A stretch of DNA of 48,163 nucleotides. Origin: Desulfobacteraceae bacterium. GTDB lineage: Bacteria; Desulfobacterota; Desulfobacteria; Desulfobacterales; UBA11574. The notes beneath the pieces are model-generated. The model worked only from the letters and a program-made list of their open reading frames with translations, was not told where the DNA came from and did not search any database. Position 1 is the stretch's first letter. Each line of letters starts with the position of its first letter. Both the position numbers and the translations under genes were made by a program. The stretch lies in the NCBI GenBank assembly GCA_030604635.1, contig JAUVVL010000002.1, forward strand, positions 1 to 48,163. The letters are read 5' to 3'. Shown here in pieces: positions 2,887-46,635 of this stretch.

Positions 2887-4902
2887 CTATTTCCCATTGC
2901 CAAAAACAATTTCGCCTATCTTGTTCAAATCATCTATTCCCCGCACCTCATGCGGAAACATCGGCACATTTGTTATTGTGCGGGAGGAAAATATTGAATG
3001 GATCTTTTTGATATATCCTGCCTGCTCAACCCTTTTGGAAGAACAAAAATTACAATCAGTCTGCGGAATAACCATGTTAACTATAATGCTGCCGCAATGG
3101 ATCTTTGCATTATCCAAAGCGCTTACAAGCCGCTCCAACTCAAGTAATCCCATGGCCTCGGCAATAGTGACCGCTGCAAAATTCGTTTTATTGTGATCCA
3201 TAAAGGCTTCCTGAATTCTTCTGACATTTTTGGACATGGCTAAAGCCTTTTCAGCGGCCTTAGCCAGCCTGACCACTCCCTTGTATTTCAATAATAATCT
3301 AAAAAATGCATTTAACCATTCCCTGACCATATCGGGAAGCTCTAAAAAGCGAAGAAGGTGGCCGGTAGGCGATGTGTCCAGGACAAAGATGTCAAATTTT
3401 CCTTCCTTTCTCAGGTCCATGATCTTATCCAGGGCCATGATCTCATCGAGGCCAGGGGGTGCAAGGGTTAAAAGCTCCGTCATGACCTCACGGTCGAATT
3501 TTATATCAACCCCGCCGCCAAGAAATTTGTCGAATATCTCTTCTATCTCTTTTTTGAAATCCTGCTTAAAATCTTCAAACAACTTATCCGCATTTATCTC
3601 AAGAGCGTATAGATTGGTCTTTGGGTAGTGAAGATTGAAGATTGAAGATTGAAGATTTTGATGTATCGGTGTAATTTTATCCCCGATGGTCAATTTGAAT
3701 GAATCGGAGAGTGAATGAGCGGGATCTGTGCAGAAGACAAGTATGTTTTTATCCGGGTTACATTGTGCCAGATGAAGGGCGGCGGCTGAAGCAAGGGACG
3801 TCTTGCCTACTCCGCCCTTACCGCCAAAGAGAACAAATTCCAGGTTGGGATCGATAGCTAAATAGGCCTGGACTTCCTCAACACTGACAACAGCCTTAGG
3901 GGATTCATAAGGTTTGGATATTCCCATAAGATAATCCGCCAGACCCTTCAGTTCTTCCACCCCTCGGATTTCATTAGGAAACAATGGAACTTTGATCAAA
4001 CTATATTGAGAAAAACTCTCTTCGATCTCAGACAAAGGCTGTCTCTGATCCTCTTGCTTTGACGCGCAAAATGCACATTCATGAGCATCTGCCACCCTGT
4101 TGACAATAATCTCCGTCACTGGAATATTGTTTTTCTCTAGAGCACTTAACAATCTCTTTGTCTCAGATGTCGCCATGGGCTCAGGAATAGTTACGGGAAC
4201 AAAGCGGGTTGTCTGCTCGTCTGAAAGCAGTTTTTTAACGCTCTCAATATCAGAGGAAAGCTTATCAATGAAAAAATCACACTCATCTTTCACATACTTT
4301 TTGCCGGTAAAATGGACTGACATGAATCTGTGCTTTTGCTGCATTAAGTCCATGAACTCAATCCATTTTAGCATCTGTTCGGGGAGGCTGAGCATGCGCA
4401 CAGTGTGGCCGGTAGGGGCTGTATCAAGTATCAGGATATCATATATCCCCTCTTTCAAAATATTGGCTATCTCGATGACAGCCATGACCTCATCCATCCC
4501 GGGAAGTGAAAGATTAAAAAATTCAGTAATGTCATTCCTATCGAAATATGTTCCCCTGTCTGCAAGTTTCTTGATTACAGCCTCATTTTTCCGTTTAAAC
4601 TCATCCCCCAGCTTGACAGCATCCAACTCGCGGGCGTACAGATTGCGGATTGTTGATTGTTGATTGTTGATTGTTGACCCTCTGTCCTCTGTAACCTTAT
4701 CACCTATCTCGATGCCAAAGCTGTCCCCCAAAGAATGGGCAGGATCGGTCGAAATCACCAAAACTTTTTTGTCGTTTTGAAAAGACCGTGCAAGATGAAC
4801 AGCCGCAGCCGCAGCCATGGTTGTCTTGCCCACCCCGCCTTTTCCGCCAAAAAGGATAAGGCGAAGCTCTTTGTTTTGAAAATATTCGGGAACGTTAGTC
4901 AT
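2887..4902 (-). CDS. Internally duplicated Get3/TRC40/ArsA-family ATPase (two fused halves), copy 1
   Basis: Two deviant P-loops GGKGGVGKTT and GGKGGVGKTS. Each half carries DPAHSL and DTAPTGHT/L. Each half ends with a CxxCxxK/R motif (CAFCASKQ, CNFCSSKR), like the Get3 zinc-bridging CxxC. 671 aa. Confidence 0.9.
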   Translation of the reverse strand: MTNVPEYFQNKELRLILFGGKGGVGKTTMAAAAAVHLARSFQNDKKVLVISTDPAHSLGDSFGIEIGDKVTEDRGSTINNQQSTIRNLYARELDAVKLGDEFKRKNEAVIKKLADRGTYFDRNDITEFFNLSLPGMDEVMAVIEIANILKEGIYDILILDTAPTGHTVRMLSLPEQMLKWIEFMDLMQQKHRFMSVHFTGKKYVKDECDFFIDKLSSDIESVKKLLSDEQTTRFVPVTIPEPMATSETKRLLSALEKNNIPVTEIIVNRVADAHECAFCASKQEDQRQPLSEIEESFSQYSLIKVPLFPNEIRGVEELKGLADYLMGISKPYESPKAVVSVEEVQAYLAIDPNLEFVLFGGKGGVGKTSLASAAALHLAQCNPDKNILVFCTDPAHSLSDSFKLTIGDKITPIHQNLQSSIFNLHYPKTNLYALEINADKLFEDFKQDFKKEIEEIFDKFLGGGVDIKFDREVMTELLTLAPPGLDEIMALDKIMDLRKEGKFDIFVLDTSPTGHLLRFLELPDMVREWLNAFFRLLLKYKGVVRLAKAAEKALAMSKNVRRIQEAFMDHNKTNFAAVTIAEAMGLLELERLVSALDNAKIHCGSIIVNMVIPQTDCNFCSSKRVEQAGYIKKIHSIFSSRTITNVPMFPHEVRGIDDLNKIGEIVFGNGK
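3630..3657. repeat. Heptamer array (GAAGATT x4) inside the Get3-like CDS, encoding QNLQSSIFNL
   Basis: Four exact 7-nt units read through in-frame on the minus strand. It is the same unit as the intergenic CTTCAAT arrays. Confidence 0.9.
4641..4675. repeat. Heptamer array (GATTGTT/GATTGCG x5) inside the Get3-like CDS, encoding STINNQQSTI
   Basis: Five 7-nt units lie at the equivalent loop of the N-terminal half, just before NLYARELD. Confidence 0.85.
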
Positions 4903-4973
4903 TTGTCATTTGTCATTTGTTATTAGTTATTGGTTATTAATTATTGGTTATTAATTATTGGTTATTAATTATT
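4897..4973. repeat. STRR-like heptamer array, 11 units (AGTCATT/TGTCATT/GGTTATT/AATTATT)
   Basis: Exactly 77 nt (11 x 7). It fills the whole spacer between the stop of 4973..5872 and the start codon of 2887..4902. Confidence 0.9.
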
Positions 4974-5872
4974 CACTGGACCTTGGACAATCTTATTTCC
5001 AGCAGATTATTTCTAAGATGAACCTGCTGGCTATCGAAATTTGCTTCACAGGGCAGCTGGATGATTTCCGCCCAGGGGGAGCCGGTTTTTTCGGATTTGA
5101 CCACCAGCTCATCTCCGTGAATTTCCAGTTTTAAATCAGATGCCGCCACCCTTTTTGCTTCCATAATCACCCGGATGTGCGAGCCTTCATCGAATATGTC
5201 CAATAACCGGTCTTTGGTCTCTTTCCTCCATTTTTCCTGCTCTCCCATCAGCCACCAGCTAAATAAAACCTTTTCTCCGGTCTCGTGGTCTGTCCTGGCC
5301 CTTTCAAAAGAGAGAATCGGGCAGCCGACCACTTTCTCTGCGATGGGATTGATCGTCTCCTTAATGTTCAGAAGAACATGCATATGGTTTGGGGCATCGA
5401 TGAGTTTGGCCAGTTGGTCGATCCTGGCGTGACGGTTGTCCCGGAGGTACCACAAAATATCCTGGCCGTCAGGATCGAGTCTGGCAGAAATCTTTTCGAT
5501 AGTTTCCAGATCGATCTTCAAAAGAGAAGCCTGCATGATTATTCTTTTCTGCCAGGTTTCACAATCGTTTACCACGAACCAGATCCTGGAATCCCCTGAG
5601 GCTTTTCCAGCCTTATAAAAAAGACATACGGCTTGTTTTCTCCTTAAAACATAATGGAGTTTTTCTACCTTTAACGCTTTGATATCATTTACCAGGATTT
5701 TAAACCGAATAGTGCGTCCCTGGCAGATCATCAGCCTTTGATTGGTAAGATATAACCCGGCAATCTTCCACCCGGAGCGCAAGCTATCCTTATATGCCCC
5801 CTGGCCTTGGATGATAATATGCTCACCATCTTGAAGGTGGGGGATGCCGGTTTTTTGGAAATCTCTTTGCAT
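4973..5872 (-). CDS. Three-part protein: PH/GRAM-like domain, wHTH-like segment, C-terminal alpha-crystallin (Hsp20-like) domain
   Basis: N-terminal GWKIAGLYLTNQRLMICQG..W motif pattern of GRAM/GLUE-type PH domains. Middle DILWYLRDNRHARIDQLAKLI. C-terminal LLDIFDEGSHIRVIMEAKRVAASDLKLEIHGDELVV..IQLPCEAN..NNLLEIRLSK resembles an ACD. Confidence 0.55.
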   Translation of the reverse strand: MQRDFQKTGIPHLQDGEHIIIQGQGAYKDSLRSGWKIAGLYLTNQRLMICQGRTIRFKILVNDIKALKVEKLHYVLRRKQAVCLFYKAGKASGDSRIWFVVNDCETWQKRIIMQASLLKIDLETIEKISARLDPDGQDILWYLRDNRHARIDQLAKLIDAPNHMHVLLNIKETINPIAEKVVGCPILSFERARTDHETGEKVLFSWWLMGEQEKWRKETKDRLLDIFDEGSHIRVIMEAKRVAASDLKLEIHGDELVVKSEKTGSPWAEIIQLPCEANFDSQQVHLRNNLLEIRLSKVQ

Positions 5873-5906: not shown

Positions 5907-7670
5907 TTACATCTTCTCCAACAATTTCCTAAGCGCTTCCGTCTTATTTTTGATGAGCCCGCTTTCACCTTGGGCCATGGCCTCTTTTACTTTAAATATG
6001 ACTGACTCAATCTGTCGAAGATAAGAAGTCGACAATTTTCCCTTTTTTTCCTCAACAACCAGTTCAGCCGCACGGATCATGCTGTCGGCCTGGATGTTAA
6101 TCTCCAATGACTCGCGTTTTTTCATATCTTCTTCGGCATGCGCTTCAGCCTCACTGACCGCCTGCTTTACCTGTTCATCCGACAACAGGTATGAAGCATC
6201 GATCTTGATGCCGGTCTGTTTTTCGGTGTGCAGCTCCTGAGCAGAGACTTTCACGATTCCGTTCACATCGATCTTAAAGGAGACCTCCACATGGGCCTTT
6301 CCCCTGGGCAGGGTTGGAATATCGGTCAACTGGAATTGCCCCAGGCTGAAATTGTCTACAGCCATCTCCCGCTCACCCTGGAGGACATGAATATCCATCA
6401 CGGCTTGATTATCCTCGGCGTTGGTAAATATCTGCCCGGCAGATGTGGGTATGGCGGCGTTTCTGTGGATGATCTTTGTAAAAAGACCGCCCTGTGTTTC
6501 AACACCTAATGAAAGCGGGGTTACGTCAACCAGTACAACATCGCTAATCTCTCCGGTCAAAACCCCGGCCTGGACAGCCGCCCCGATTCCCACTACCTCA
6601 TCAGGGTTGATCTTGACATAAGGTTTTTTATTAAAGATTTTTTCCACCAGTTCTCTTACAGACGGCATTCGGGTGGAGCCTCCCACCAACACGATCCGAT
6701 CGATCTCATCCGGAGACAGCCGGGCATCAGATAAGGCCAGCCGTGTAGGGCCGACGAGCTTTTCCCTCAAATCCGAAGTTATCGCTTCAAATGTTTCCCG
6801 ATCAATTGAGACCTCCGGATCTTTTAATTTGCCGTTTTGGGTCCTGCCCGCTCGTGCCCTGTCCGCCTCGCTCCACCCGGCAGGAGGGCAGGCGGGTTTG
6901 ATAAAAGGAAGGGAAATTTTGACACCGGGTTGGCAGGAAAGCTCCCTTTTGGCCTTTTCACAGGCCTCTTTCAAACGCTGTAGTGCGTATTTGTCTGATC
7001 TTATATCAACCCCATGTTCATTTAAAAATTTTTCAGCAAAGTAATCAAGCAGCCTTTGGTCCCAGTCATCGCCGCCAAGCCGGGTGTTGCCGCTGACAGC
7101 TTTGACATGAAAAAAACCGTCTCCCAGCTCCAGGATGGACACGTCAAACGTCCCTCCGCCCAGGTCCCAGACCAGGATCGTTTGAATATCTTCACGATCC
7201 AGCCCATAAGCCAGGGAGGCCGCCGTAGGCTCGTTGATTATCCTTATCACATCAAGGCCGGCTATCCTGCCGGCATCTTTGGTGGCCTGGCGCTGACCGT
7301 CATTGAAATAGGCAGGAACCGTGATAACGGCCTTTTTCACCTCTTCTCCAAGATAGTTCTCAGCGTCTGATTTTATCTTGCGCAAAATAAAGGAGGATAT
7401 CTCCTGGGGGGAATAGCTCCTGCCATTAAGAGAGACTCTGTAGTCGCTGCCAATATGCCTCTTAATGGACATGACCGTCTTTTCGGTATTGGCTGCGGCC
7501 TGGCTTTTGGCTACCGAGCCGACCAGTTTATGCCCCTGGGCTGTTTCCGCAAAAACAGAGGGCGTCAGATTTTCCCCTTCAGCGTTTTTAATCACTTTGG
7601 CCTGCCCATCTTCTATAATGGCTGCCACCGAGTAAGTAGTGCCAAGATCTATGCCGATTGCTTTAGTCAT
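5907..7670 (-). CDS. Atypical Hsp70/DnaK-family chaperone (short lid, extra loop insert)
   Basis: GIDLGTTYSVAA, DLGGGTFDVSIL, VLVGGSTRMP and a substrate-binding beta domain (VDVTPLSLGVET). 587 aa, so the C-terminal lid/tail is shorter than in DnaK. About 18 extra residues follow LPFI. Confidence 0.9.
   Translation of the reverse strand: MTKAIGIDLGTTYSVAAIIEDGQAKVIKNAEGENLTPSVFAETAQGHKLVGSVAKSQAAANTEKTVMSIKRHIGSDYRVSLNGRSYSPQEISSFILRKIKSDAENYLGEEVKKAVITVPAYFNDGQRQATKDAGRIAGLDVIRIINEPTAASLAYGLDREDIQTILVWDLGGGTFDVSILELGDGFFHVKAVSGNTRLGGDDWDQRLLDYFAEKFLNEHGVDIRSDKYALQRLKEACEKAKRELSCQPGVKISLPFIKPACPPAGWSEADRARAGRTQNGKLKDPEVSIDRETFEAITSDLREKLVGPTRLALSDARLSPDEIDRIVLVGGSTRMPSVRELVEKIFNKKPYVKINPDEVVGIGAAVQAGVLTGEISDVVLVDVTPLSLGVETQGGLFTKIIHRNAAIPTSAGQIFTNAEDNQAVMDIHVLQGEREMAVDNFSLGQFQLTDIPTLPRGKAHVEVSFKIDVNGIVKVSAQELHTEKQTGIKIDASYLLSDEQVKQAVSEAEAHAEEDMKKRESLEINIQADSMIRAAELVVEEKKGKLSTSYLRQIESVIFKVKEAMAQGESGLIKNKTEALRKLLEKM
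6834..6899. repeat. GC-rich REP-like segment embedded in-frame in the Hsp70 gene (encodes KPACPPAGWSEADRARAGRTQ)
   Basis: The sense strand cccgcctgccctcctgccgggtggagcgaggcggacagggcacgagcgggcagg closely matches the intergenic element at 43351-43400 and 45080-45130. Confidence 0.7.
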
Positions 7671-7739: not shown

Positions 7740-8351
7740 CTAGGACTCATTTGAAAACTCTGATAGAAGCTTTAATATATTTTCCTCGGCAAATGGTTTA
7801 TCGATGAAGCTGCAGACCCCTTTGGCCGTTGCTTCTTCCATTCTTTCAGCACTGCCATATGCAGAAATGATGGCTACCAATGTCTCTGAGTTCATTTTTT
7901 TGATTTTAGAAAGGAGATCCATTCCATCACCATCAGGCAGTTTTAAATCTAAAAATACCAGATCGGGTGATTTCTTTAGACAGTCAGTGCCTTCACTTAT
8001 GGTATTGGCAACAATTACATTATACCCTTTGGCGCTTAAAATATTAGATAAAAGCCAACACAAATCCTCTTCGTCGTCTATTATCAAAATATTTTTTATC
8101 CGCTTTTTTGGAAACGAAATCGGCTTTATTTCTTGTTTGTTTCTTTTTAAATCCTCTTCGTCCTTTTGTTTAAAATAATGCCTCAGCTCTTCAAGCTCTT
8201 CAGGTTTACGCCAACCAGAGAGACCGCTTCGCCGTACAAGCGCCTCATCATGTTTTATTATTCCCTTAAGAATCCAACTCTCTAACCTGGACTGATGAAT
8301 TGCCCTGTATATATCCGCACCTCTTATGACATCGTATTTTATTGTTTTCAT
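7740..8351 (-). CDS. Response regulator with N-terminal GYF_2-like domain and C-terminal REC
   Basis: N-terminal LESWILKGIIKHDEALVRRSGLSGWRKPEELEEL (GYF-like). REC: ILIIDDEEDL, LVFLDLKLPDGDG, IIS, DKPF. Confidence 0.8.
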   Translation of the reverse strand: MKTIKYDVIRGADIYRAIHQSRLESWILKGIIKHDEALVRRSGLSGWRKPEELEELRHYFKQKDEEDLKRNKQEIKPISFPKKRIKNILIIDDEEDLCWLLSNILSAKGYNVIVANTISEGTDCLKKSPDLVFLDLKLPDGDGMDLLSKIKKMNSETLVAIISAYGSAERMEEATAKGVCSFIDKPFAEENILKLLSEFSNES

Positions 8352-8389
8352 GAGCTTTCCTCTTATACCCCCTTAAATACAGATCGTAT

Positions 8390-8529
8390 ATTGAAGATTG
8401 AATATTGAATACCTGCCCGACGGACGGCAGGCGGGTTTGTGGAAATCGCTCCTGTCTGCGTGCGGACACGCACAGGCAGGTCGCTCTGTTTTTTAAAAAA
8501 ATTGACGGAATTCCTTCAATCTTCAATTT
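8390..8529. mobile_element. MITE/REP-like element bounded by inverted heptamer arms (family R1, copy a)
   Basis: Left arm attgaagattgaatattgaat, right arm ttccttcaatcttcaat. Interior gtggaaatcgct..ctctgttttttaaaaaaattgacggaattcc is shared with copies at 22009, 40413 and 43247. Confidence 0.55.
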
Positions 8530-8535: not shown

Positions 8536-9261
8536 CTATTTTATAGGCAAAGAGATTGTAAAAATAGTGCCGTAGTAGGGCTTGCTTTCTACTGCTATGG
8601 TCCCATCATGACTAACAACGATTCCGTAGCATATAGATAGCCCCAAACCTACCCCCGATGATTTTGTGCTAAAAAATGGATCAAATATCCTGATAATATC
8701 TTCTTCCGGAATACCCCCCCCTGTATCTTTAATCTTTAGGATAAAATTGTCTCTATCATTCTCAGTAACAATAGTCATTTCGCCTTTTTCAGGCATAGAC
8801 TCAACCGCATTGATCATCACGTTTGAAAAAACACGCTTGATCTGTTCATTATCGACGTTTATTATTGATAATTCAGCATTTAACTTTTTGTGTACTTTCA
8901 CGTGTTGTGAAACAATTTTGGTTCTAACAGAATCTAAAACACTTTCCAGGACTTCATGAATATCATGAGGCTTAATATTCAGTTTCGGCGGCCTGGCACA
9001 GTTAAGGAGTTCGGTAATTAGAAAATTAATCCTTTCCGTATTTCTGGTAATAACCTCAATATGTTTGACCCAGGGGCTGTCTGGAGCACAACCCTTCTTA
9101 AGCTGCTGGACAGACATAGATACGTTACCGAGAGGATTTCTTATCTCATGGGCTATACTGGCGGCTATCCTGCCGGTGAAGGCAAGCCTTTCGGAACGAA
9201 CCAGCTCTTCCTTTCTATCACCAAATTCTCCATAAGAATGCTTGCCAACTGAGTTTGACAT
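8536..9261 (-). CDS. Soluble histidine kinase (HisKA + HATPase_c)
   Basis: H-box SIAHEIRNPL, N-box NVMINAVESMP, G-boxes DTGGGIPEE and GVGLGLSICYG. Start set at ATG 9261 (MSNSVGKH). The longer ORF-track N-terminus (MTNDQ..) is read out of a heptamer array. Confidence 0.8.
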   Translation of the reverse strand: MSNSVGKHSYGEFGDRKEELVRSERLAFTGRIAASIAHEIRNPLGNVSMSVQQLKKGCAPDSPWVKHIEVITRNTERINFLITELLNCARPPKLNIKPHDIHEVLESVLDSVRTKIVSQHVKVHKKLNAELSIINVDNEQIKRVFSNVMINAVESMPEKGEMTIVTENDRDNFILKIKDTGGGIPEEDIIRIFDPFFSTKSSGVGLGLSICYGIVVSHDGTIAVESKPYYGTIFTISLPIK

Positions 9262-9334
9262 GTTCTTCCTCCAGTTCTCATGTTCTCCTGTTCTCCTTCG
9301 TCGAACATTTTGGTCATTGGTCACTGGTCATTAG

Positions 9335-9700
9335 TCATTGGACTATCGGTTTCTTGCCTATAGATTTAATATAGGCGTTCAGCTTTTTACCGATCGCTTC
9401 TATGTCTTCATTCAGTGAATTGAACTCATCATCATTTAGCAATTTCCTGTTATTTCCCTTAGCAAGCCAAGTTCTTGTCTCATACAGTGAACCCCGTGCA
9501 TAATAACAGAACTGTTTGTTTTCCTTATAAGAGAAACGACCAAAACCCTCACTTAAATTTGCTGCCACTGAATCGGCGGATCTAACTAACTGCTTGCCTA
9601 TTGTGTCCTTAGCGAAATAATTCCATTGAATTACAATTTTCCAAACTTTCTCACCAAGTTCCATTGCGAGTTGATAAACTTGGAGATCTTCGATTTGCAT
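9335..9700 (-). CDS. Four-helix-bundle protein (23S rRNA intervening-sequence protein family), copy 1
   Basis: DLQVYQLAMELGEKVW..KDTIGKQLVRSADSVAANLSEGFGRFSYKENKQFCYYARGSLYET is characteristic of the family. About 85% identical to 10855..11226. Start at internal ATG 9700; the upstream MVISHWSLVIG is heptamer-derived. Confidence 0.8.
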   Translation of the reverse strand: MQIEDLQVYQLAMELGEKVWKIVIQWNYFAKDTIGKQLVRSADSVAANLSEGFGRFSYKENKQFCYYARGSLYETRTWLAKGNNRKLLNDDEFNSLNEDIEAIGKKLNAYIKSIGKKPIVQ

Positions 9701-9829
9701 AATCAACTCCTCACTTCTCAATAACCAATAACCAATGACTAATGACCAATGACTAATGACCACTAACCAGCCACTAACCCCTGTTCAGTACCCCCCCGCC
9801 TCGCAAGCCCGTCCGCCATTGGCTTCGCC

Positions 9830-10834: not shown

Positions 10835-10854
10835 AATTAGTCATTTGTCATTTG

Positions 10855-11226: not shown

Positions 11227-11306
11227 GGTCTCCTCCTCATGCCTTCCGTTACCGATGACTAATGACCAATGACTAATGACCAATGACTAATGACCAGTGA
11301 CCACTG

Positions 11307-12956: not shown

Positions 12957-13031
12957 CTTTCCTTTTTCAGCTTTACATCATGCATCCCATGCCCGCCCTG
13001 GCGGAAATGACCAATGACCAGTGACCACTGA

Positions 13032-31505: not shown

Positions 31506-31510
31506 GGCAA

Positions 31511-35968: not shown

Positions 35969-35971
35969 TCT

Positions 35972-40005: not shown

Positions 40006-40097
40006 CTATAGGTTTCTTGCCTATTAATAAGCCAGGTCTTTGTCTCATATAGTGAACCATGGGCATAATAACAAAAACTGTTTTGTGCAAAGCTCAT
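40006..40097 (-). pseudogene. Decayed remnant of a four-helix-bundle (IVS protein) gene
   Basis: Retains ..FCYYAHGSLYETKTWL.. and the 3' end ctataggtttcttgcctat, matching 9335-9356 and 9455-9515. Large internal deletions and a frame change. Confidence 0.55.
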
Positions 40098-40145: not shown

Positions 40146-40316
40146 TTATCTGGCACTTTGTCGTTTGCTAATAGTAATAAATTGGGCTCGATTCGTACCA
40201 GCCAGTTTAATTTCAACCAACTGACCTTCTTTTAAATCTGCTTTCCTTTGAATATTTTTGGGAATAGGAATTTTACCTTCTTTATCTACCCTTGCAAAAG
40301 CACGCATTAAAGCCAT
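40146..40316 (-). CDS. AbrB/SpoVT/MazE-type small DNA-binding protein (56 aa, below the ORF-track cutoff)
   Basis: MALMRAFARVDKEGKIPIPKNIQRKADLKEGQLVEIKLAGTNRAQFITISKRQSAR. The KEGKIPIPKNIR..L.EGQ.VEI pattern is the swapped-hairpin signature. G-rich RBS 8 nt upstream. Confidence 0.65.
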   Translation of the reverse strand: MALMRAFARVDKEGKIPIPKNIQRKADLKEGQLVEIKLAGTNRAQFITISKRQSAR

Positions 40317-40508: not shown

Positions 40509-41426
40509 TTAGCAGTGTTGATCAATCAATTCTCCAATAACCTCTTTGACTTTGTCCTGGTTGGACTTGCTGCCGATGCGGCTGGTCTCTGATGACAAAA
40601 TATCCATACAGGTTTGTTTGAAAATTTCGTCATTCTTGTTGACCAAAGCCCTTCGGACCTTAAGAGTCTTGGCAATCATAACGCTGCCCCTTATGGTGGG
40701 AGCAAATTCGTACACATCGGAATCCCTCAGTCCCCGGACAATTTTAACAATCCTGGAGGCATCACCATTGGCAAGGCCTGATTTGGTTTCGGTGATACGA
40801 ACCTCCGTCTCTTCGTCGAAATGATCGAGATCAAGGGTGATCATTCGATCTCGGAGGGCATCCTGGCTGCGGTGCACGCCGGCATATTCCTCCGGGTTGC
40901 TGGTAAAAAGCGCCGTAAAGTCCGGGTCAACCCGCAGATAGTTCTCATCCCCCTCACGAGCCGCCGGCAGGTCCAGCATTTTTTCCTGGAGCACTGATAA
41001 AAGTACGTTATTGGCCTCGGGCCTGGAACGGGTAAATTCATCGTAAATGAGCGTGAACCCATACTTGCAGGCTACGGTCAGACGATTGTCCACCCACTTT
41101 TTTTGCAGATTCTCCTCGGTCTTAAGTACTGAATGGATGAAGTTATCCACCACCTTGCGCATACGATAACCATGCTCGCCGCCAACCAGGTCGGACGTGG
41201 AGAACTCCTCATCCCCGTGTATCATGACCACCGGCCGGCCGATCTTGCTGGCTACATGCATGGCCAGGGTGGTCTTGCCTGTTCCGGAAATCCCGCGCAA
41301 ATGAAGTGGAAAACCGGCCGCAATATAGGCCAGAGCCCTCTCGGTAATATCCTTTACAAACGGGGTTTCTACGAAGTTGGGCAGGGGACGCGGTTCCAAC
41401 ACAGTTGTCATTTCATCTATCGCCAT
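40509..41426 (-). CDS. gvpN: Gas vesicle AAA+ ATPase GvpN, copy 2
   Basis: FVETPFVKDITERALAYIAAGFPLHLRGISGTGKTTLA, TLIYDEFTRSRPEANNVLLSVLQE. Confidence 0.92.
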   Translation of the reverse strand: MAIDEMTTVLEPRPLPNFVETPFVKDITERALAYIAAGFPLHLRGISGTGKTTLAMHVASKIGRPVVMIHGDEEFSTSDLVGGEHGYRMRKVVDNFIHSVLKTEENLQKKWVDNRLTVACKYGFTLIYDEFTRSRPEANNVLLSVLQEKMLDLPAAREGDENYLRVDPDFTALFTSNPEEYAGVHRSQDALRDRMITLDLDHFDEETEVRITETKSGLANGDASRIVKIVRGLRDSDVYEFAPTIRGSVMIAKTLKVRRALVNKNDEIFKQTCMDILSSETSRIGSKSNQDKVKEVIGELIDQHC

Positions 41427-41497: not shown

Positions 41498-41570
41498 CAC
41501 GAAAATCTGTGTAATCTGCGCCTGCCCCGTAGGTCCGGAAGATCGTACTGGGGCAATCTGTGTATTAAAA
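41498..41570. repeat. 75-nt dispersed repeat R2, copy 2, enclosed by a perfect 13-bp inverted repeat (41478-41490 / 41577-41589)
   Basis: gcgataggcagtc .. R2 .. gactgcctatcgc. Confidence 0.85.
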
Positions 41571-41596
41571 CTACCTGACTGCCTATCGCATTCCGC

Positions 41597-41950
41597 CTAC
41601 TTCTTACTCACAACCCCCTTACCCCCGCATTTCGAGCAAGGGAGGTAATCGCCTGATTTGATACCCTTGCCCTCGCAGTCGGGGCAGGTCTCATACGGCT
41701 CTTTTATGTTTACCATGCCTTTTCCGCCGCAGGCAATACAGGTCAGGCGCTGGTCACGGTGAATACCTGTGCCGCCACAGAAAACACACTCGATGGCCGG
41801 TTCCGGGATGGTCACTTCTCCCCGGCCGCCACAGACCTGGCAGGTGGAGAGCTTGGACAAAAGCTCAAACGGGTCGGTCCCCTTTCCCTGACAGAAGGCG
41901 CATGTGGCAGTGACCCTCCCCTCTTCTCCTTGTAATATTTCGATACTCAT
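41597..41950 (-). CDS. Stand-alone DnaJ-type zinc-finger protein, 6 repeats
   Basis: CAFCQGKG, CQVCGGRG, CVFCGGTG, CIACGGKG, CPDCEGKG, CSKCGGKG. Confidence 0.85.
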   Translation of the reverse strand: MSIEILQGEEGRVTATCAFCQGKGTDPFELLSKLSTCQVCGGRGEVTIPEPAIECVFCGGTGIHRDQRLTCIACGGKGMVNIKEPYETCPDCEGKGIKSGDYLPCSKCGGKGVVSKK

Positions 41951-42011: not shown

Positions 42012-43079
42012 TCAGGCAATAAAATAGGTTGAATCTTCCTTCCTTACTTCTCCGTCGTCAAGGAGCTGTCTCATAACGGGAATCAGGGATCTCCAGCTTT
42101 CAATACCCAGGATGTCAGCCATCTCGACCATCCTCAGACCATCGGGATGGTCTTCAAGTATCCCTATGACCCCATCAGCCAGGCCCTCCTCCTCAGGCTC
42201 TTCTTCCTCTGCGAGATCCTCTTCCGGTTCCTCAATGACCTCCTCGGCAGATTCCTCTGCCGGTTCCTCGATGACCTCCTCAGCCGGTTCAACCTCCTCG
42301 GCAGCTTTTACCCTGGCCGGTCCTCTGGCCGACTGCATGGTAGCTAAAAGTTCCTTCCAGGCGACGGCCGTTTCTTCGCGTTCTTGTTTAAATTCCTTTA
42401 AGAGGTCATCAATATACTCCCTCCGAGGAGCATGCTCTGTCTTGAATTCTGCAATTAAATCCGCAACTTCCCTGGCTCGCCTAGGTCCCTCTGCCTTGAA
42501 TTCAGAAATCAGATCCGCAACTTCCCTGGCTCGCTCAGGTCCCTCTGCCGCAAATTCAGAAATCAGATCCGCAACCTCCCTGGCTCGCTCAGGTCCCTCT
42601 GCCTTGAATTCAGATATTAAATCGGCAACTTCCTTGGCTCGCTCAGGTCCCTCTGCCGCAAATTCAGAAATCAGGTCGGCAACCTCCCTGGCTCGCTCAG
42701 GTCCCTCTGCCTTGAATTCAGATATTAAATCGGCAACTTCCTTGGCTCGCTCAGGCCCCTCTGCTTTGAATTCAGAAATTAAATCAGCAACCTCCCTGGC
42801 TCGCTCAGGCCCCTCTGCTTTGAATTCAGAAATTAAATCAGCAACCTCCCTGGCTCGATCAGGCCCCTCTGCTTTGAATTCAGAAATTAAATCAGCAACC
42901 TCCTTGGCTCGCTCAGGCCCCTCTGCTTTGAATTCAGAAATTAAATCAGCAACCTCAGCCCTGCGCTCCTCATTTGCTGTTTTGCATTCAGATAACAGAT
43001 CTTGCACAAAATCCTTCCTGTCCCTATAGGCGCTGGCCATTTCATCTGCCAATCCTCTCAAATCGTCTGCATTTGCCAT
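42012..43079 (-). CDS. Acidic protein with ~10 tandem 18-aa repeats (EVADLISEFKAEGPERA[KR]), acidic linker and C-terminal wHTH-like domain
   Basis: Repeats span aa 42-221. The linker is EEVEPAEEVIEEPAEESAEEV... The C-terminus is ILEDHPDGLRMVEMADILGIESWRSLIPVMRQLLDDGEVRKE. It is the second gene downstream of gvpA. Confidence 0.7.
   Translation of the reverse strand: MANADDLRGLADEMASAYRDRKDFVQDLLSECKTANEERRAEVADLISEFKAEGPERAKEVADLISEFKAEGPDRAREVADLISEFKAEGPERAREVADLISEFKAEGPERAKEVADLISEFKAEGPERAREVADLISEFAAEGPERAKEVADLISEFKAEGPERAREVADLISEFAAEGPERAREVADLISEFKAEGPRRAREVADLIAEFKTEHAPRREYIDDLLKEFKQEREETAVAWKELLATMQSARGPARVKAAEEVEPAEEVIEEPAEESAEEVIEEPEEDLAEEEEPEEEGLADGVIGILEDHPDGLRMVEMADILGIESWRSLIPVMRQLLDDGEVRKEDSTYFIA
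42417..42956. repeat. 54-bp coding tandem repeat, ~10 units, near-identical
   Basis: Reiterated cctctgc[ct]ttgaattcaga[at]at[ct]a[ag]atc[ag]gcaac[ct]tcc[ct]tggctcgctcagg[ct]c units. Confidence 0.9.
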
Positions 43080-43246
43080 GTCGTTTCCTCCTTAAAATTA
43101 ATAATCTCTTATTAAAGACATGCCCGGGAATGCACACCTGCCTATAGAGGGGTGATCTTACACCTCTATACCCTCAAGGATGCCCTGAAAGTTTATGATG
43201 GCGAACCTGCTATGAGCACAAGAACTACTCGCACAGATTGGCGTTT

Positions 43247-43538
43247 CGATTGAATATTGTCGATTGAATATTGACGCTTTGTGGAAGTCGCTCCTGCCCG
43301 CCATCGCACTCGCCGTAACCAGATATGCGAAATTCAAGCGCTTGTGCTCAGGCCCGCCCTCCTGCCAAGCGGAGTGAGGCGGACGGGCGAGGCGGGCGGG
43401 TCGCTCTGTTTTTTTAAAAAACTGACAGAATTCCTTCAATCTTCAATTCCTTCAATCTTCAATTCTTCAATCTTCAATTCTTCAATCTTCAATCTTCAAT
43501 TCTTCAATCTTCAATTCTTCAATCTTCAATCTTCAATT
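43247..43538. mobile_element. MITE/REP-like element, family R1 copy d (full length, with GC-rich module and long CTTCAAT arm)
   Basis: cgattgaatattgtcgattgaatattgac | gtggaagtcgct | cctgcccgccatcgca..gcgggcgggtcgctctgtttttttaaaaaactgacagaattcc | (c)ttcaat array 43431-43538. Confidence 0.6.
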
Positions 43539-43540: not shown

Positions 43541-44176
43541 CTATCCACTCACCCTTGCCACTGATTGCCACTGGCCCTGGACCCTGGCCCTGACGACGTC
43601 AAAGTCATCCAGCATTCTGGTTAATTCAACATCACGATCGCTCTGCTGAGCCCTTATTGAATTGAGCATGACCTTGAAGTCTTTAACTTTAACCCCCTCT
43701 CCTTTTGATAGAAGTTTTTTAAGCCCGGCCCTGAATTCCTCCAGCTCGATCTGGAAGCATTTGAGTGTCTTGATTACTTTTTTCTCACGCTCTTTTTGTC
43801 GTGTTGAAATATCCTCTTTAATGGCCTCCATATCTTGCAGGGTTGAGCTACTCACGCCTAGAACGATCTTCCTGAGCCGGCTGATCATTTCTTTTTCCTG
43901 TTCCTGGAAAAGCTTAAGGCTGTGTTTGGCCTCTTCCTCGCTCTGCCGGCGGCATTCTACCACATCACTGATCATACGATCAAAGTCCTTTTTTCTCAGG
44001 CTTTCCGCTTTAGCAAGATTGTCCCTCAGCCGGACGATCATGTTCTCGATCTCCGTTTGAAAGCTTTTAAGGAAATGATATGCTTGATCCATCAATGTGT
44101 TTACTGTCTTCACACGCATTTCATAAGAATCTATGATACTGTTGGCCAATGCCTTTAAATCCTCTCCAGCCCCCAT
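43541..44176 (-). CDS. Coiled-coil protein immediately downstream of gvpA, distantly related to the 18-aa-repeat protein
   Basis: N-terminal EDLKALANSIIDSYEMRVKTV parallels DDLRGLADEMASAYRDRKDFV of 42012..43079. Degenerate D-F-x-x-M-I-S motifs recur (KKDFDRMISDV, VKDFKVMLNSI). Confidence 0.55.
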   Translation of the reverse strand: MGAGEDLKALANSIIDSYEMRVKTVNTLMDQAYHFLKSFQTEIENMIVRLRDNLAKAESLRKKDFDRMISDVVECRRQSEEEAKHSLKLFQEQEKEMISRLRKIVLGVSSSTLQDMEAIKEDISTRQKEREKKVIKTLKCFQIELEEFRAGLKKLLSKGEGVKVKDFKVMLNSIRAQQSDRDVELTRMLDDFDVVRARVQGQWQSVARVSG

Positions 44177-44551: not shown

Positions 44552-44758
44552 CTAAGCGGCCTCGGGTAATAGTCCAACGGCCTCAGCGTATTTCAAGAAA
44601 GTCTCAACGCCAGCTATGACGATCCTGGCCTCAATAGCTAAAAGCTCAATGCCGACCAGGGAAATCCTGACCCATGCATCGACCACAACGCCCTTGTCGA
44701 GAATTCTATCGACAACCTCTACCAAACTTGAAGATGCTATTGCTTTTTCTACTGCCAT
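44552..44758 (-). CDS. gvpA: Major gas vesicle structural protein GvpA
   Basis: [63 protein letters not shown] is near-canonical GvpA. GGGGAGGTG RBS. Confidence 0.97.
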
Positions 44759-44799: not shown

Positions 44800-44815
44800 A
44801 GCACTTATCATGCCA
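44800..44815 (-). promoter_or_regulatory. Sigma54 (-24/-12) promoter candidate for gvpA
   Basis: The minus strand reads TGGCATgataaGTGCT, with GG and GC at the exact consensus spacing (TGGCAC-N5-TTGCW), about 40 nt upstream of the gvpA ATG. An NtrC-type activator gene is adjacent. Confidence 0.6.
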
Positions 44816-45019: not shown

Positions 45020-45135
45020 CCTGCCCGCCATCGCACCCGCTATACCCAGATATGCGAAATTCAAGCACTTGTGCTCAGGCCCGCCCTTCCTGCCAAGCGG
45101 AGTGAGGCGGACGGGCGAGAGCGTTGCGGGCAGGA
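45020..45135. repeat. GC-rich REP module (family R1 core), copy in the gvpA upstream region
   Basis: cctgcccgccatcgcacccgctatacccagatatgcgaaattcaagcacttgtgctcaggcccgcccttcctgccaagcggagtgaggcggacgggcgagagcgttgcgggcagg. Confidence 0.8.
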
Positions 45136-45174
45136 ACGAAATGAGCTTAAGTCAACAACATTGGGGGGAAGGGA

Positions 45175-46635
45175 TCACTTTTTGGCTGCTAACAACTGAC
45201 CGCTGACCACTGTCCACTGTCCACTGTTTATCTGATACCTCTTAATCTTTCTAAGCAAAGTTTTATAATCGATGCCGAGCCTGCGGGATGCCGCAGTTTT
45301 ATTCCCTTTTGTTTCGTTTAACATCTGAGTTATTATCTTTTTTTCCACGGTTTGGGAAATAGACTTAACTATCTCCGAGAGAGTTTTTCCCGCATCATTG
45401 TCAGGGATAGAGGCTTTTATTTCTGAAGTGCAATGTATGATATTAGAATTAAATATAAAGTGAATTGGTTTAATTGAAACATTTTCCTCGCTGATAAGCA
45501 CGGCCTGGCGTATAACATTTCGCAATTCACGAACATTCCCGGGCCATGGATATGAGGCCAGTGATTGAAGAGCCACCTTAGAAATCCCCTGACATTTTTT
45601 TTTGAGTTCCTGCTGAACTTCATTCATAAATCTATAAGCAAGATAGGAGATATCCTCTTTTCTTTCTCTGAGTGCAGGGACTTTCACGGCAAATTCCTTT
45701 AAGCGGAAATAGAGGTCGGGACGGAACTTTCCGGACTCTATATCTTTTTCCAGAGGCTGATTTGTAGCCGCAATAATTCGGACCTGAACGGATTTAGCTT
45801 TTTTTGATCCCAATCTTTGAATACAACGCTCCTGCATTGCTCGAAGAATTTTTTGCTGCGCCTGATATGGCAGATTGCCGATTTCATCTAAAAACAGAGT
45901 ACCTTTGTTAGCCAACTCAAACTGCCCTGGTTTGTCAGTGTAAGCTCCGGTAAAAGCTCCCTTCATATAACCGAATAGTTCACTTTCAATCAGGGTTTCC
46001 GGAATTGCACCGCAGTCGACGGCCACAAACGGTCCTTTTTTCACCATACTCATATCGTGAATGGCACGGGCCACAAGCTCCTTGCCTGTGCCGCTCTCTC
46101 CTTCTATTAAAACTGTAAATAAAGTGGGGGCAACCTTCTCCACAAGATTGGCAAGCTTCTTGATCTGATCACTTTTTCCCATAAGCTTATAAAGGGAGTC
46201 CCTTTCACTTATAACCTTTCTTAAATGTTCGATCTCTTGCACAAGATTTTTCTTCTCAAACGCCCGTTGGATGGTAAAGAGGAGGGCGCTGTTATCTATC
46301 GGCTTTGTAATATAGTCGTGTACGCCTACCTTTATGGCCTTAACCACGGACTTTACATCTGCATAGGCCGAAATCATGATAATCGGTATTGCTGGAAAAC
46401 GTCGCCTCATAACCTCGGCAACGCGCTGGCCATTCTGCCCGGGCATCCGGTAGTCTAATAAAATCATGTCAGGGATATTCTTCTCCAGCAAACTCAGAGC
46501 TTCATCCCCATCTTGCGCCTGAGCCACCATGTATCCTGCTCCCTGAAGGACATTGGTTATTGCCCAACGAAAATCAGAATCGTCATCCACCACCAGCATC
46601 TTCCTTGCGGGCGATATATGTTTCTCAGCAGTCAT
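45175..46635 (-). CDS. NtrC-family sigma54-dependent response regulator (REC, AAA+ sigma54-interaction domain, Fis-type HTH)
   Basis: MLVVDDD..ILLDYRMPGQNG; GESGTGKE Walker A; KGAFTGA (GAFTGA loop); LFLDEI; C-terminal AASRRLGIDYKTLLRKIKRY. The last ~15 aa run into a heptamer array. Confidence 0.92.
   Translation of the reverse strand: MTAEKHISPARKMLVVDDDSDFRWAITNVLQGAGYMVAQAQDGDEALSLLEKNIPDMILLDYRMPGQNGQRVAEVMRRRFPAIPIIMISAYADVKSVVKAIKVGVHDYITKPIDNSALLFTIQRAFEKKNLVQEIEHLRKVISERDSLYKLMGKSDQIKKLANLVEKVAPTLFTVLIEGESGTGKELVARAIHDMSMVKKGPFVAVDCGAIPETLIESELFGYMKGAFTGAYTDKPGQFELANKGTLFLDEIGNLPYQAQQKILRAMQERCIQRLGSKKAKSVQVRIIAATNQPLEKDIESGKFRPDLYFRLKEFAVKVPALRERKEDISYLAYRFMNEVQQELKKKCQGISKVALQSLASYPWPGNVRELRNVIRQAVLISEENVSIKPIHFIFNSNIIHCTSEIKASIPDNDAGKTLSEIVKSISQTVEKKIITQMLNETKGNKTAASRRLGIDYKTLLRKIKRYQINSGQWTVVSGQLLAAKK

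Follow-up and report, generated by a model that had tools for sequence, protein, structure and literature searches.

The gas-vesicle (gvp) gene clusters that have been characterized, in Halobacterium (p-vac and c-vac), Anabaena flos-aquae, Bacillus megaterium and Serratia sp. 39006, comprise 8-20 genes and share a set of core families that includes the Hsp20-like GvpH. Here we describe a gas-vesicle gene island of about 44 kb (positions 2887-46635, minus strand) and about 56 genes on contig JAUVVL010000002.1 of a Desulfobacteraceae bacterium; the whole stretch analyzed, 48,163 nt long, is referred to as the window. Compared with the characterized clusters, the island has the same core families with several core genes duplicated, has no recognizable GvpC, and adds an Hsp70, a J-domain fusion, six zinc-finger proteins, two Get3-type ATPases and a Cdc48, as well as two B12-binding radical-SAM (rSAM) enzymes and PH, winged-helix, AbrB and repeat proteins. 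A functional link between these accessory genes and gas vesicles is well supported by their gene neighborhoods and domain fusions, and on balance we consider it probable that they form a dedicated module for the handling, assembly and turnover of the hydrophobic shell proteins. The core is that of an ordinary gvp cluster, and the Hsp20 proteins belong to the known GvpH class. The initial annotation of this DNA had stated that characterized clusters lack such accessory classes, and our search of the open-access full-text literature agrees, as it returned no paper linking gas vesicles with Get3/ArsA, B12-radical-SAM enzymes, Hsp70/J domains or Cdc48. The island is real and occurs widely among uncultured anaerobes, and the open-access literature searched does not describe it. 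In the Scalindua rubra genome paper, mention is limited to "11 gas vesicle synthesis proteins," and in the Ace Lake Auribacterota paper to "genes for gas vesicle production"; in the databases the J-domain fusion is named "GvpL/GvpF family gas vesicle protein" and the conserved protein that we call u222 is "hypothetical."

Pfam and NCBIfam scans of about 64 minus-strand open reading frames (ORFs) of the window recovered nearly all items of the gene list first drawn up for 2887-46635, each in its place, and all the gvp and accessory genes listed are co-directional on the minus strand. They belong to an unbroken run of about 58 minus-strand genes (185-46635), 56 of which lie inside the island; the junctions include 7 overlaps, 11 gaps of at most 30 nt and 20 gaps of more than 100 nt. 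The G+C content is about 45% and the GC skew is negative throughout (both computed on the whole window). Many island proteins form paralog pairs or families within the island (all-against-all BLAST). Genes not on the earlier list are an NtrC-type activator, an internal histidine kinase/response regulator pair, two TPR proteins, a single and a tandem AbrB-like protein, two 23S_rRNA_IVP genes and one PDDEXK_3 gene. For gene neighborhoods, one genome per species was scanned with an rSAM alignment as the query, and 79 loci (designated by L numbers) were compared with all window proteins by tblastn; related loci were compared over 10-kb flanks and the whole-island comparison was pieced together. 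The taxonomic names given to loci are the labels of metagenome-assembled genome (MAG) records.

The core gas-vesicle set is complete, with every gene that the initial annotation had assigned to GvpA, GvpJ-like fusions, GvpK, GvpF/L, GvpG, GvpO and GvpN found by Pfam or NCBIfam:

44552-44758, minus strand: GvpA, major shell protein (PF00741; NF006874, 124 versus 100 bits)
13032-13391, minus strand: GvpJ-like shell protein with a C-terminal zinc ribbon (PF00741; halo_gas_GvpJ, 99 bits)
9830-10834, minus strand: GvpM/J-like shell domain followed by two PH domains (PF00741, weak GRAM; GvpM, 97 bits)
12256-12558, minus strand: GvpK (PF05121, E 2.1e-19)
11307-12071, minus strand: GvpF1, GvpL-like (PF06386; NF045778, 199.1 versus 200 bits)
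24633-25409, minus strand: GvpF2 (PF06386, E 3.9e-58)
35972-36994, minus strand: GvpF/L with a C-terminal J domain (PF06386 and PF00226, the latter E 6.6e-15)
31511-31966, minus strand: GvpG1, with a hydrophobic N-terminal extension (PF05120, E 4.6e-15)
31969-32208, minus strand: GvpG2 (PF05120, E 1.6e-19)
34795-35103, minus strand: GvpO (PF05800, E 8.6e-19)
26119-27045, minus strand: GvpN1 (TIGR02640, 344.6 versus 266.8 bits)
40509-41426, minus strand: GvpN2, AAA+ ATPase (TIGR02640, 340.9 versus 266.8 bits)

The set thus consists of GvpA, two GvpJ/M fusions, GvpK, three GvpF/L, two GvpG, GvpO and two GvpN, and within this one locus GvpF/L, GvpG, GvpJ/M, GvpK, GvpN and GvpO all pass the Pfam gathering thresholds. 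GvpA aligns over its full length with A. flos-aquae GvpA, for which a cryo-electron microscopy structure is available (PDB ID 8gbs; E 2.7e-29), and judged by its sequence it is a canonical GvpA close to the Anabaena protein. We therefore classify the locus as a gas-vesicle gene island of an expanded type, predicted to give ordinary GvpA-ribbed vesicles. The zinc ribbon of the GvpJ-like protein resembles a free double zinc-ribbon protein encoded nearby (12549-12956; BLAST), and the J domain of the GvpF/L fusion (GvpF-J) has an intact HPD motif (FHPDK; KKFHPDKY as read in the sequence). One assignment did not hold: the supposed tandem GvpO-like protein at 35216-35884, our u222, has no Pfam GvpO match and an hhalign probability of 0.2% to GvpO, which rules it out as a second GvpO. 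In a hydrophobicity scan of the island products, strongly hydrophobic 19-residue segments occur only in GvpA, the two GvpJ/M proteins, GvpK and GvpG2, and the same scan revealed no membrane or tail-anchored protein encoded in the island.

Interspersed with these genes are the chaperone-type and ATPase genes:

2887-4902, minus strand: Get3/TRC40-type ATPase 1, internally duplicated pseudo-dimer (TIGR00345, 451 versus 135 bits; PF02374 twice)
19927-21960, minus strand: Get3/TRC40-type ATPase 2, internally duplicated pseudo-dimer (PF02374 twice; 42% identical to ATPase 1)
5907-7670, minus strand: Hsp70, DnaK-type, with a short C terminus and an insertion of about 18 residues (PF00012 over residues 1-592 of 599)
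39414-39971, minus strand: Hsp20/GvpH-like small heat shock protein (NF041800, 141 versus 140 bits; PF00011)
22926-23519, minus strand: Hsp20-like protein (PF00011; weak ArsA_HSP20; NF041800, 81 bits)
4973-5872, minus strand: fusion of PH, winged-helix and alpha-crystallin (Hsp20) domains (4rzk, E 1.2e-18; N terminus paralogous to PH25)
37138-39264, minus strand: VAT/Cdc48-type double-ring AAA+ unfoldase (TIGR01243, 947 versus 803 bits)
17339-17782, minus strand: ZnF21, DnaJ-type zinc finger (PF00684)
18622-18921, minus strand: ZnF24, DnaJ-type zinc finger (PF00684)
23827-24261, minus strand: ZnF32, DnaJ-type zinc finger (PF00684)
28315-29343, minus strand: zinc finger fused to two winged-helix domains (PF00684 with MarR_2/TrmB-like matches; alignment)
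34079-34594, minus strand: ZnF49, DnaJ-type zinc finger (PF00684)
41597-41950, minus strand: ZnF57, DnaJ-type zinc finger (PF00684; paralogy)

The initial annotation had described two tandem Get3/ArsA ATPases. Both are present, each about 670 residues long and an internal duplication, but their genes lie 15 kb apart and are not adjacent. Their P-loop and switch motifs are present, and CxxC motifs occur in both halves (CAFC/CNFC and CPFC/CAFC) and are conserved in most orthologs. The best PDB match is Chlamydomonas ARSA1 (5zme, 252 bits), followed by archaeal and eukaryotic Get3, whereas Escherichia coli ArsA (1f48) reaches only 102 bits. Since TIGR00345 is passed, the arsenical-pump equivalogs are missed (TIGR04291, 206 versus 650 bits; NF041417, 260 versus 800 bits), ARSA1 is the best match and both halves carry CxxC, these "ArsA" proteins are by sequence deviant Walker A ATPases of the Get3/TRC40 type and not arsenite-pump subunits. 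The low equivalog scores, together with the absence of arsB, arsC and arsD among the ORFs scanned in the window, rule out an arsenite-pump identity. The longer Get3 orthologs of other loci did not reveal a fused Hsp20 domain, their extensions being low-complexity sequence. Heptanucleotide repeats like those of the intergenic gaps (described below) are found in frame within both Get3-type genes (3629-3657 and 4648-4677 in gene 1; 20675-20706 in gene 2) and encode short loop insertions (HQNLQSSIFNL; STINNQQSTIRNL); at this site the L007 ortholog has much longer low-complexity insertions and most other orthologs have none.

The other members of this group were named correctly at the outset. Hsp70 has complete nucleotide-binding and substrate-binding domains, passes NF001413 (746 versus 648 bits), falls below TIGR02350 (729 versus 823 bits) and has 2v7y as its best PDB match; it and the J-domain fusion, with its HPD motif, are established by PF00012 and by PF06386 plus PF00226. 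To the two Hsp20/GvpH-like genes must be added a third alpha-crystallin domain in the C terminus of the 4973-5872 protein (PH-wH-Hsp20), which has twelve orthologs across phyla. The Cdc48-like protein, identified by TIGR01243, consists of CDC48_N, CDC48_2 and two AAA modules, is closest in the PDB to Thermoplasma VAT (5g4f, 754 bits), has aromatic pore loops in both rings (KYYG and KWVG) and lacks a C-terminal HbYX motif. All six DnaJ-type (CXXCXGXG) zinc-finger proteins, starting at 17339, 18622, 23827, 28315, 34079 and 41597, were recovered.

The rSAM enzymes and three conserved proteins that recur beside accessory genes elsewhere are the following:

14334-15713, minus strand: B12-binding radical-SAM enzyme 1, rSAM1 (PF02310 and PF04055)
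29507-30895, minus strand: B12-binding radical-SAM enzyme 2, rSAM2 (PF02310 and PF04055; 46% identical to rSAM1)
13413-14324, minus strand: TPR protein with a C-terminal Cys4 domain, downstream partner of rSAM1 (TPR matches; three TPRs)
22150-22455, minus strand: u101 (orthologs in L010-L015, L029 and L086)
35216-35884, minus strand: u222, conserved alpha/beta protein (AlphaFold2 pLDDT 90.7)

Both B12-radical-SAM enzymes score above cutoff for PF02310 and PF04055, as had been claimed, and the CxxxCxxC motif (C218, C222 and C225) is invariant in 29 of 29 aligned sequences. None of the functional equivalogs of the family (BchE, HpnJ, ApyD, PhpK, the methyl-coenzyme M reductase [MCR] methyltransferase and others) is reached, the best being BchE at 213 versus 481 bits. 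Orthologs of rSAM2 were found in L020, L014, L023, L025 and L087. The TPR/Cys4 gene follows rSAM1 in every related locus that reaches past rSAM1 (L002/L010, L003, L005, L007-L009, L011-L016 and L029); its cysteines C242, C262, C266 and C296 are invariant, and its Cys4 domain has no sequence match in the PDB.

The u222 family has 1042 representatives (at 50% identity) at E ≤ 1e-3, with invariant H, D, H, YQDG, E, RD and H positions across the window protein and P0361-P0510. Neither Foldseek with the u222 model (best E 0.16, TM about 0.2) nor a sequence profile search returned a match from the PDB. Weak but consistent TraB/PrgY/GumN matches (TIGR00261, E 0.0084; PF01963 in 9 of 58 distant homologs, best E 1.2e-4), together with the motifs VPVIHV..D and FIGAYHD, lead us to propose tentatively that u222 is a remote TraB/PrgY/TIKI-like candidate hydrolase. 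In relatives, u222 is fused to a GvpF C-terminal fragment or to a response-regulator receiver, and the receiver fusions suggest that it is a predicted enzymatic output domain.

The evidence that carries the link with gas vesicles is the recurrence of these genes together. Homologs of rSAM1 that are 64-88% identical come from sources named Desulfobacterales, Omnitrophica, Thermodesulfovibrionales, Nitrospirota and Bathyarchaeia, and one of 47% identity comes from Scalindua rubra; the nearest relatives of the window are Desulfobacterales MAGs, with 65-91% protein identity. Wherever the rSAM shares 60% identity or more with rSAM1, or 50% or more with rSAM2, the locus carries other genes of the cluster within the reach of its contig. 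These cluster-type loci are labeled Desulfobacterales (L007, L008 and L020), Thermodesulfovibrionales (L010), Nitrospirota (L011), Planctomycetota (L014), Scalindua rubra (L015/L023), Brocadiaceae (L025), Clostridia (L029), Auribacterota (L016) and Bathyarchaeia (L005/L006), and three unclassified MAGs also belong to them. In varying combinations they carry the TPR partner, Get3-type, PH-wH-Hsp20, Hsp70, zinc-finger and winged-helix genes, and likewise the proline/lysine (PK)-repeat protein, u101, u222, the tandem AbrB protein and GvpJ, GvpK and GvpF. By contrast, none of the approximately 60 loci with rSAM paralogs of 28-52% identity carries any of these cluster genes by tblastn, and rSAM1 orthologs of at least 60% identity occur only in gvp-type loci.

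Several gene orders are conserved. They include Get3, rSAM1, TPR partner, (u101) and PH-wH-Hsp20; GvpJ, GvpK, GvpF, GvpM/J-PH and Hsp70, with GvpM/J-PH adjoining Hsp70 in L007, L010, L011 and L014; and Cdc48, GvpF-J and u222, found in the window, L086, L087, L088, L093 and L096. Indeed, Cdc48 lies directly upstream of GvpF-J in every context examined, and u222 follows in most. The fusion of GvpF/L with a J domain is itself common, as more than 115 protein clusters contain both Pfam domains, from Desulfobacterales, Syntrophales, Desulfuromonadales and Methanosarcinaceae. The upstream half of the window has a gene-by-gene counterpart in L087, and its downstream half is matched by L008. In the loci labeled Thermodesulfovibrionales and Scalindua rubra, gvp genes are intermingled with those for a Get3-type ATPase, Hsp70 and zinc-finger proteins, the former locus having in addition the TPR partner and Cdc48; in L005 and L006, Logan contigs whose rSAM protein is named Bathyarchaeia by NCBI, the only other cluster genes are those for the TPR partner, split ArsA and GvpO. 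The accessory genes are therefore syntenic with gvp genes in other genomes, under at least six phylum-level labels (tblastn and gene neighborhoods), and the persistence of synteny across phyla through extensive rearrangement points to horizontal transfer of the package.

Domain fusions provide independent evidence of functional coupling between accessory and Gvp proteins. GvpF/L is fused to a J domain, GvpM/J to two PH domains and GvpJ to a zinc ribbon, and a relative fuses GvpF to u222; accessory domains are also fused to one another, as in PH+wH+Hsp20 and in zinc finger+wH+wH. Given the co-conservation at cluster-type rSAM loci, the absence from paralog loci and these fusions, we conclude that the accessory genes are not passengers.

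The initial annotation had further proposed a client-handling pathway for the shell proteins. Co-conservation and fusions bear out its connection with the gvp genes, while the choice of GvpA-family proteins as clients rests on family analogy and hydrophobicity: the Get3, Hsp70, Hsp20 and related families have such functions elsewhere, and strong hydrophobicity is confined, among the island's products, to proteins of the Gvp shell families, which makes these proteins candidate clients of the chaperones. We hold any single step of the following scheme with much less confidence than the general statement. The NtrC-type activator, a sigma-54-like promoter at gvpA and histidine kinase/response regulator pairs would switch the island on, as gene content and motif position suggest. 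Newly made GvpA, J, M, K and G might then be kept soluble by the Get3-type pseudo-dimers, the Hsp20 domains and six zinc-finger holdases. The J domain seen on GvpF/L would recruit and activate an Hsp70 at the assembly site, be it the one encoded in the island or the cellular DnaK, and the two GvpN AAA+ ATPases with GvpF/L, G, K and O would build the shell as in known systems. The GvpM/J-PH-PH and GvpJ-zinc-ribbon fusions may expose PH and zinc-ribbon handles on the vesicle; these could serve as docking sites for PH-wH-Hsp20, the approximately 10 winged-helix modules and both repeat proteins, which would act as a coat, an adaptor or a spacer. Cdc48, with its neighbor u222, might pull out shell subunits that have misassembled or collapsed, so that they can be reused or degraded, and the two B12-radical-SAM enzymes, one with its TPR/Cys4 partner, may modify a cluster protein.

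A more specific version, which we regard as rather unlikely in its entirety, would join the Get3-like ATPase, GvpF/L-J with its own Hsp70, and Cdc48 into a targeting-insertion-extraction pathway at the gas-water interface, with a logic like that of GET and endoplasmic-reticulum-associated degradation. The rSAM enzymes would modify (e.g., C-methylate) a shell or coat protein, tuning hydrophobicity or strength, and the PH and winged-helix proteins would form an ESCRT-II-like docking layer on the GvpM/J handles.

Several observations weigh against a shell-protein handling module. The compact relatives L086, L088 and L096 show Cdc48 and GvpF-J but no rSAM or Get3 in the stretch compared, so that part of the toolkit may be dispensable or lineage-specific. 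To our knowledge, the gas-vesicle clusters described so far function with none of these accessories. Hsp70, which passes a DnaK equivalog model, could have a general role, the winged-helix and AbrB-like proteins could be plain DNA-binding regulators, and the TraB-like assignment of u222 is weak, with a best E of 1.2e-4 and no fold match. The 20 intergenic gaps longer than 100 nt imply that the island may be several transcription units, and every step beyond gene content draws on what is known of the protein families.

A different reading, already raised in the initial annotation and in our estimate unlikely though worth weighing, is that the island builds a protein-shelled structure that is more elaborate than, or different from, a simple buoyancy vesicle, with, for instance, either an extra outer coat or tether made of repeat, PH and winged-helix proteins (following the PH/GLUE plus winged-helix logic of ESCRT-II) or a chemically modified shell, and that the chaperones serve this added complexity. 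The proteins on which it draws, with others of the same stretches, are listed here:

18960-19367, minus strand: stand-alone PH-domain protein (AlphaFold2 model with seven strands and a C-terminal helix, core pLDDT >85)
16635-17189, minus strand: wH19 and wH20, two small winged-helix proteins (weak MarR; paralogy)
23588-23830, minus strand: wH31 (member of an overlapping trio)
25458-25799, minus strand: wH35 (weak MarR; paralogy)
30928-31248, minus strand: wH42 (paralogy; winged-helix profile)
31323-31514, minus strand: wH43 (paralogy; winged-helix profile)
32760-33002, minus strand: wH47 (weak MarR; paralogy; winged-helix profile against the PDB)
17867-18601, minus strand: coiled-coil and winged-helix protein, start corrected (sequence read)
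15798-16592, minus strand: PK-repeat protein with a C-terminal zinc ribbon (TRF period 24 nt; about 25 repeats of 8 residues)
42012-43079, minus strand: 18-residue-repeat protein with an acidic linker and a C-terminal winged helix (TRF period 54 nt, 9.7 copies)
24258-24464, minus strand: double zinc-ribbon protein (PF12773)
12549-12956, minus strand: double zinc-ribbon protein (DUF7560 and zinc-ribbon matches)
43541-44176, minus strand: u211, helical protein directly after gvpA (without a family match)
22459-22716, minus strand: short TPR protein (TPR_1/2)
27138-27476, minus strand: u112 (orthologs in L020 and L086)
32334-32672, minus strand: u112b, small charged helical protein (orthologs in L020 and L087; without a family match)
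33018-34082, minus strand: u354 (orthologs in L087, L020 and L086; without a family match)

The model of the stand-alone PH protein matches PH domains with a Foldseek probability of 1.0, including GRK2 PH and the Vps36/EAP45 GLUE domain, the latter being one of the points in favor of an elaborate structure. The other three copies are assigned by paralogy and alignment of the four segments, with profile support limited to sub-threshold GRAM, so that the four PH-like domains first reported are confirmed by model and Foldseek for one copy and by paralogy for three. The winged-helix modules number about 10: seven are small stand-alone proteins, in keeping with the "at least 7" of the initial annotation, and the others are at the end of the zinc-finger fusion (two), at the ends of the coiled-coil and 18-residue-repeat proteins and in the middle of PH-wH-Hsp20; their combined profile matches PDB winged-helix domains at E about 1e-5. 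That about 10 winged-helix and four PH domains sit on GvpM/J, Hsp20, zinc-finger, coiled-coil and repeat partners would suit a layered coat, as would the two conserved repeat proteins, with periods of 8 and 18 residues, whose presence TRF and reading of the sequence bear out, and the two rSAM enzymes dedicated to the island. Many host MAG isolate labels also suggest a brine, saline-lake or seep origin, and for two hosts the described sources are a Red Sea brine interface and anoxic Ace Lake water. Against this stand a canonical GvpA, near that of Anabaena, and a core set equal to that of ordinary clusters; moreover, the PH and winged-helix folds are generic, and the top winged-helix matches are Z-alpha or repressor-like rather than ESCRT-II.

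Most of these proteins are conserved in place. The PK-repeat unit, P-x-P-L-K-x-Y-x, recurs in orthologs that are 54-78% identical in Desulfobacterales, Nitrospirota, Planctomycetota and Clostridia loci, and the 18-residue-repeat/winged-helix protein has orthologs in L087, L086 and L015. Orthologs of wH19 and wH20 were found in L008, L011, L014 and L015, and the order ZnF24, coiled-coil/winged-helix protein, ZnF21 is the same in L008. In the trio at 23588-24464 (zinc ribbon, ZnF32 and wH31), both junctions are 4-nt overlaps. Two starts were moved, that of the coiled-coil/winged-helix ORF 17867-18697 most likely to 18601 (Met33) and that of u354 probably from the ORF 33018-34385 to 34082, where it makes an ATGA overlap with the upstream ZnF49. 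The u211 gene is conserved after gvpA in L086, L087, L089, L093 and L025, and its position makes it a possible outer-surface (GvpC-like) protein; its similarity to the 18-residue-repeat protein is not significant (BLASTP E 0.04).

It is improbable, in our view, that the accessory genes are mainly regulatory, that is, that the winged-helix, AbrB-like, zinc-finger/ribbon, NtrC and kinase/regulator proteins form a large control circuit of gas-vesicle expression, transcriptional or anti-sigma-like, in which chaperones are minor. The relevant features are the following:

45175-46635, minus strand: NtrC-type sigma-54 enhancer-binding response regulator at the head of the island (Response_reg, Sigma54_activat and HTH_8)
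44801-44815, minus strand: sigma-54-like -24/-12 element TGGCAT-N5-GTGC, 43 nt upstream of the gvpA ATG (pattern search)
8536-9324, minus strand: histidine kinase between GvpM/J-PH and Hsp70 (Pfam)
7740-8351, minus strand: response regulator between GvpM/J-PH and Hsp70 (Pfam)
43113-43249, minus strand: noncoding leader of about 135 nt, upstream of the 18-residue-repeat/winged-helix gene (blastn to L087 and L086)
40146-40316, minus strand: small AbrB/MazE-like protein between GvpN and Hsp20 (weak PF04014)
27488-27991, minus strand: tandem AbrB-like protein, u167 (the small AbrB protein matches both halves of u167 orthologs)

Such a circuit would account for a winged-helix profile that matches DNA- and RNA-binding winged-helix domains, for the AbrB/MazE-like folds, for the NtrC activator, sigma-54-like motifs and two-component genes, for a conserved leader element upstream of one gene and for the fusion of u222 to response-regulator receivers. 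Yet the fusion partners of the winged helices are Hsp20, coiled-coil, repeat and zinc-finger proteins rather than sensor domains, there would be no precedent for a single operon with seven or more regulators that are paralogs, and the Get3-type ATPases, Cdc48, Hsp70, J fusion and rSAM enzymes would be left unexplained.

The NtrC-type activator likewise precedes gvpA in L087 and L089, and the order histidine kinase, response regulator and Hsp70 after GvpM/J-PH recurs in L096; together these genes recall gvrA-C of Serratia. The role of the sigma-54-like site at gvpA as a promoter is suggested by its position, and over the window such motifs show no excess (41 matches versus 39.6 expected). A perfect sigma-54 consensus, TGGCAC-N5-TTGC, lies at 46843-46829 (minus strand), about 190 nt upstream of the activator gene and inside the probably spurious ORF 46662-46967; it suggests autoregulation. 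The leader is 80-83% identical in L087 (3149-3286) and L086 (599-728), whereas the protein encoded downstream shares only 35-57% identity. Scanning metagenomes for the exact pattern gave seven more copies (L089-L095), each followed by an ORF starting MANADDL. Its predicted fold has two hairpin domains, with only one-sided G-U/A-U changes and no compensatory ones, and it matches no Rfam family. The small AbrB-like protein has 56-residue orthologs at the same position in L086 and L087, and u167 is conserved in loci of six phylum-level labels.

That the accessory genes are general stress or proteostasis genes, or mobile-element cargo, without a vesicle-specific role on a horizontally transferred island is highly improbable: selfish-looking 23S_rRNA_IVP genes, PDDEXK_3, heptamer and dispersed repeats, a cross-phylum identity high enough to suggest horizontal transfer, and a full-length, generic-looking Hsp70 and Cdc48 would fit, but domain fusions link accessory to Gvp domains, gene order is kept through extensive rearrangement in six phyla and no member of the rSAM subfamily was seen outside a gvp context.

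The intergenic sequence of the island is itself repetitive. Tandem heptanucleotide repeats (ATTGAAG/TGAAGAT, TTGGTCA/CAATGAC and ATTTGTC; 4-14 copies) occupy most gaps, e.g., 4895-4973, 9310-9341, 9719-9769, 10836-10876, 11251-11303, 12226-12256, 13006-13050, 22087-22116, 35186-35220, 35888-35976 and 43434-43538, and resemble the short tandemly repeated repetitive (STRR) heptamers of heterocystous cyanobacteria. Dispersed intergenic repeats of 55-90 nt, 90-94% identical and present also upstream of gvpA, fall into the groups 35101-35187 and 41498-41584; 43293-43360, 45020-45087 and, inverted, 22790-22859; 19844-19928 and 47264-47348; and 8475-8528 and 43395-43448. They could be elements resembling miniature inverted-repeat transposable elements or repetitive extragenic palindromes, or regulatory sites. 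The 23S_rRNA_IVP genes (four-helix-bundle, bAvd-like) at 9335-9763 and 10855-11283 are 79% identical, with a remnant at 40017-40076; related islands have five copies (L096), two (L008) or one (L004), and in several lineages these genes often flank GvpM/J-PH or Hsp70.

At the downstream end the island may extend past the start at 2887 first reported, to include one further gene:

918-2909, minus strand: hybrid sensor kinase, overlapping the stop of Get3-type gene 1 by 23 nt (Pfam)

Matches resembling this kinase adjoin Hsp20 and u222 in L015 (Scalindua) and L025 (Brocadiaceae). On the same strand, 25 nt beyond it, lies an SLT lytic transglycosylase gene (185-892). The ORFs 43158-43439 (which overlaps the leader), 17671-17910, 25824-26042 and 8266-8526 look spurious. 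An Rfam gathering scan and ARAGORN found no known RNA family, riboswitch or tRNA in the window, and predicted terminators (23 versus 20.9 in shuffled sequence) are not clearly above chance. A PADLOC scan of ten accessory proteins returned only generic AAA, P-loop and rSAM matches; a defense island is thus ruled out, as none of the ten is a specific PADLOC system protein.

If the accessory genes do handle shell proteins, they touch on the question of how the aggregation-prone, extremely hydrophobic GvpA stays soluble, is delivered and enters the growing shell, and the island could be read as a natural solution adopted in many anaerobes. The J domain on GvpF/L would implicate GvpF/L as the site of Hsp70 action, and the radical-SAM pair hints at a new post-translational modification. 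Large uncharacterized families, namely u222 (about 1000 representatives), PH-wH-Hsp20 and the PK-repeat protein, gain a firm functional context, as does the leader element. One report (PMC12848028) describes proteotoxic stress upon heterologous gas-vesicle expression as a limit on the use of gas vesicles as acoustic reporters; the Get3-type, small heat shock protein, zinc-finger and Cdc48 genes are candidates for chaperone co-expression. Hurt et al. obtained vesicles in E. coli at 30°C from a 23.5-kb cluster of Desulfobacterium vacuolatum (FWXY01000008:1268-24724; PMC10344784), which may be of the same type as the island; as a cluster of this length from a cultured member of the Desulfobacterales, it may offer a ready experimental model for the accessory genes.

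The components of the proposed module each have described counterparts. Like HscB/HscA-type J/Hsp70 pairs, the island has a client-specific J fusion and a dedicated Hsp70 paralog, but the client-binding part is a GvpF/L domain and the island has no GrpE. Its zinc-finger proteins, like plant BSD2 and the Anti-TRAP fold, carry CXXCXGXG motifs without a J domain, yet six paralogs stand in one locus. The Cdc48 shares the N domain, the D1 and D2 rings and the aromatic pore loops of archaeal VAT/Cdc48; it differs in occurring in bacteria, in adjoining GvpF-J, in lacking HbYX with no proteasome encoded nearby, and in having as its conserved neighbor the TraB/TIKI-like candidate hydrolase. With BchE/HpnJ-like, RiPP (ribosomally synthesized and post-translationally modified peptide) and MCR C-methyltransferases, the rSAM enzymes share the B12 domain and CxxxCxxC core, whereas they score far below all curated equivalog cutoffs, have been seen only in gvp islands and form a subfamily with an obligatory TPR/Cys4 partner. 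Finally, the Get3-type ATPases share with the GET/TRC40 system (Get3, Chlamydomonas ArsA1 [5zme] and archaeal Get3) the motifs, the CxxC and an ArsA1-like pseudo-dimer; the island has neither the Get1/2, Get4/5 and Sgt2 partners nor a tail-anchored membrane protein, and the presumed client is instead a shell protein bound for the gas-water interface and not for a membrane.

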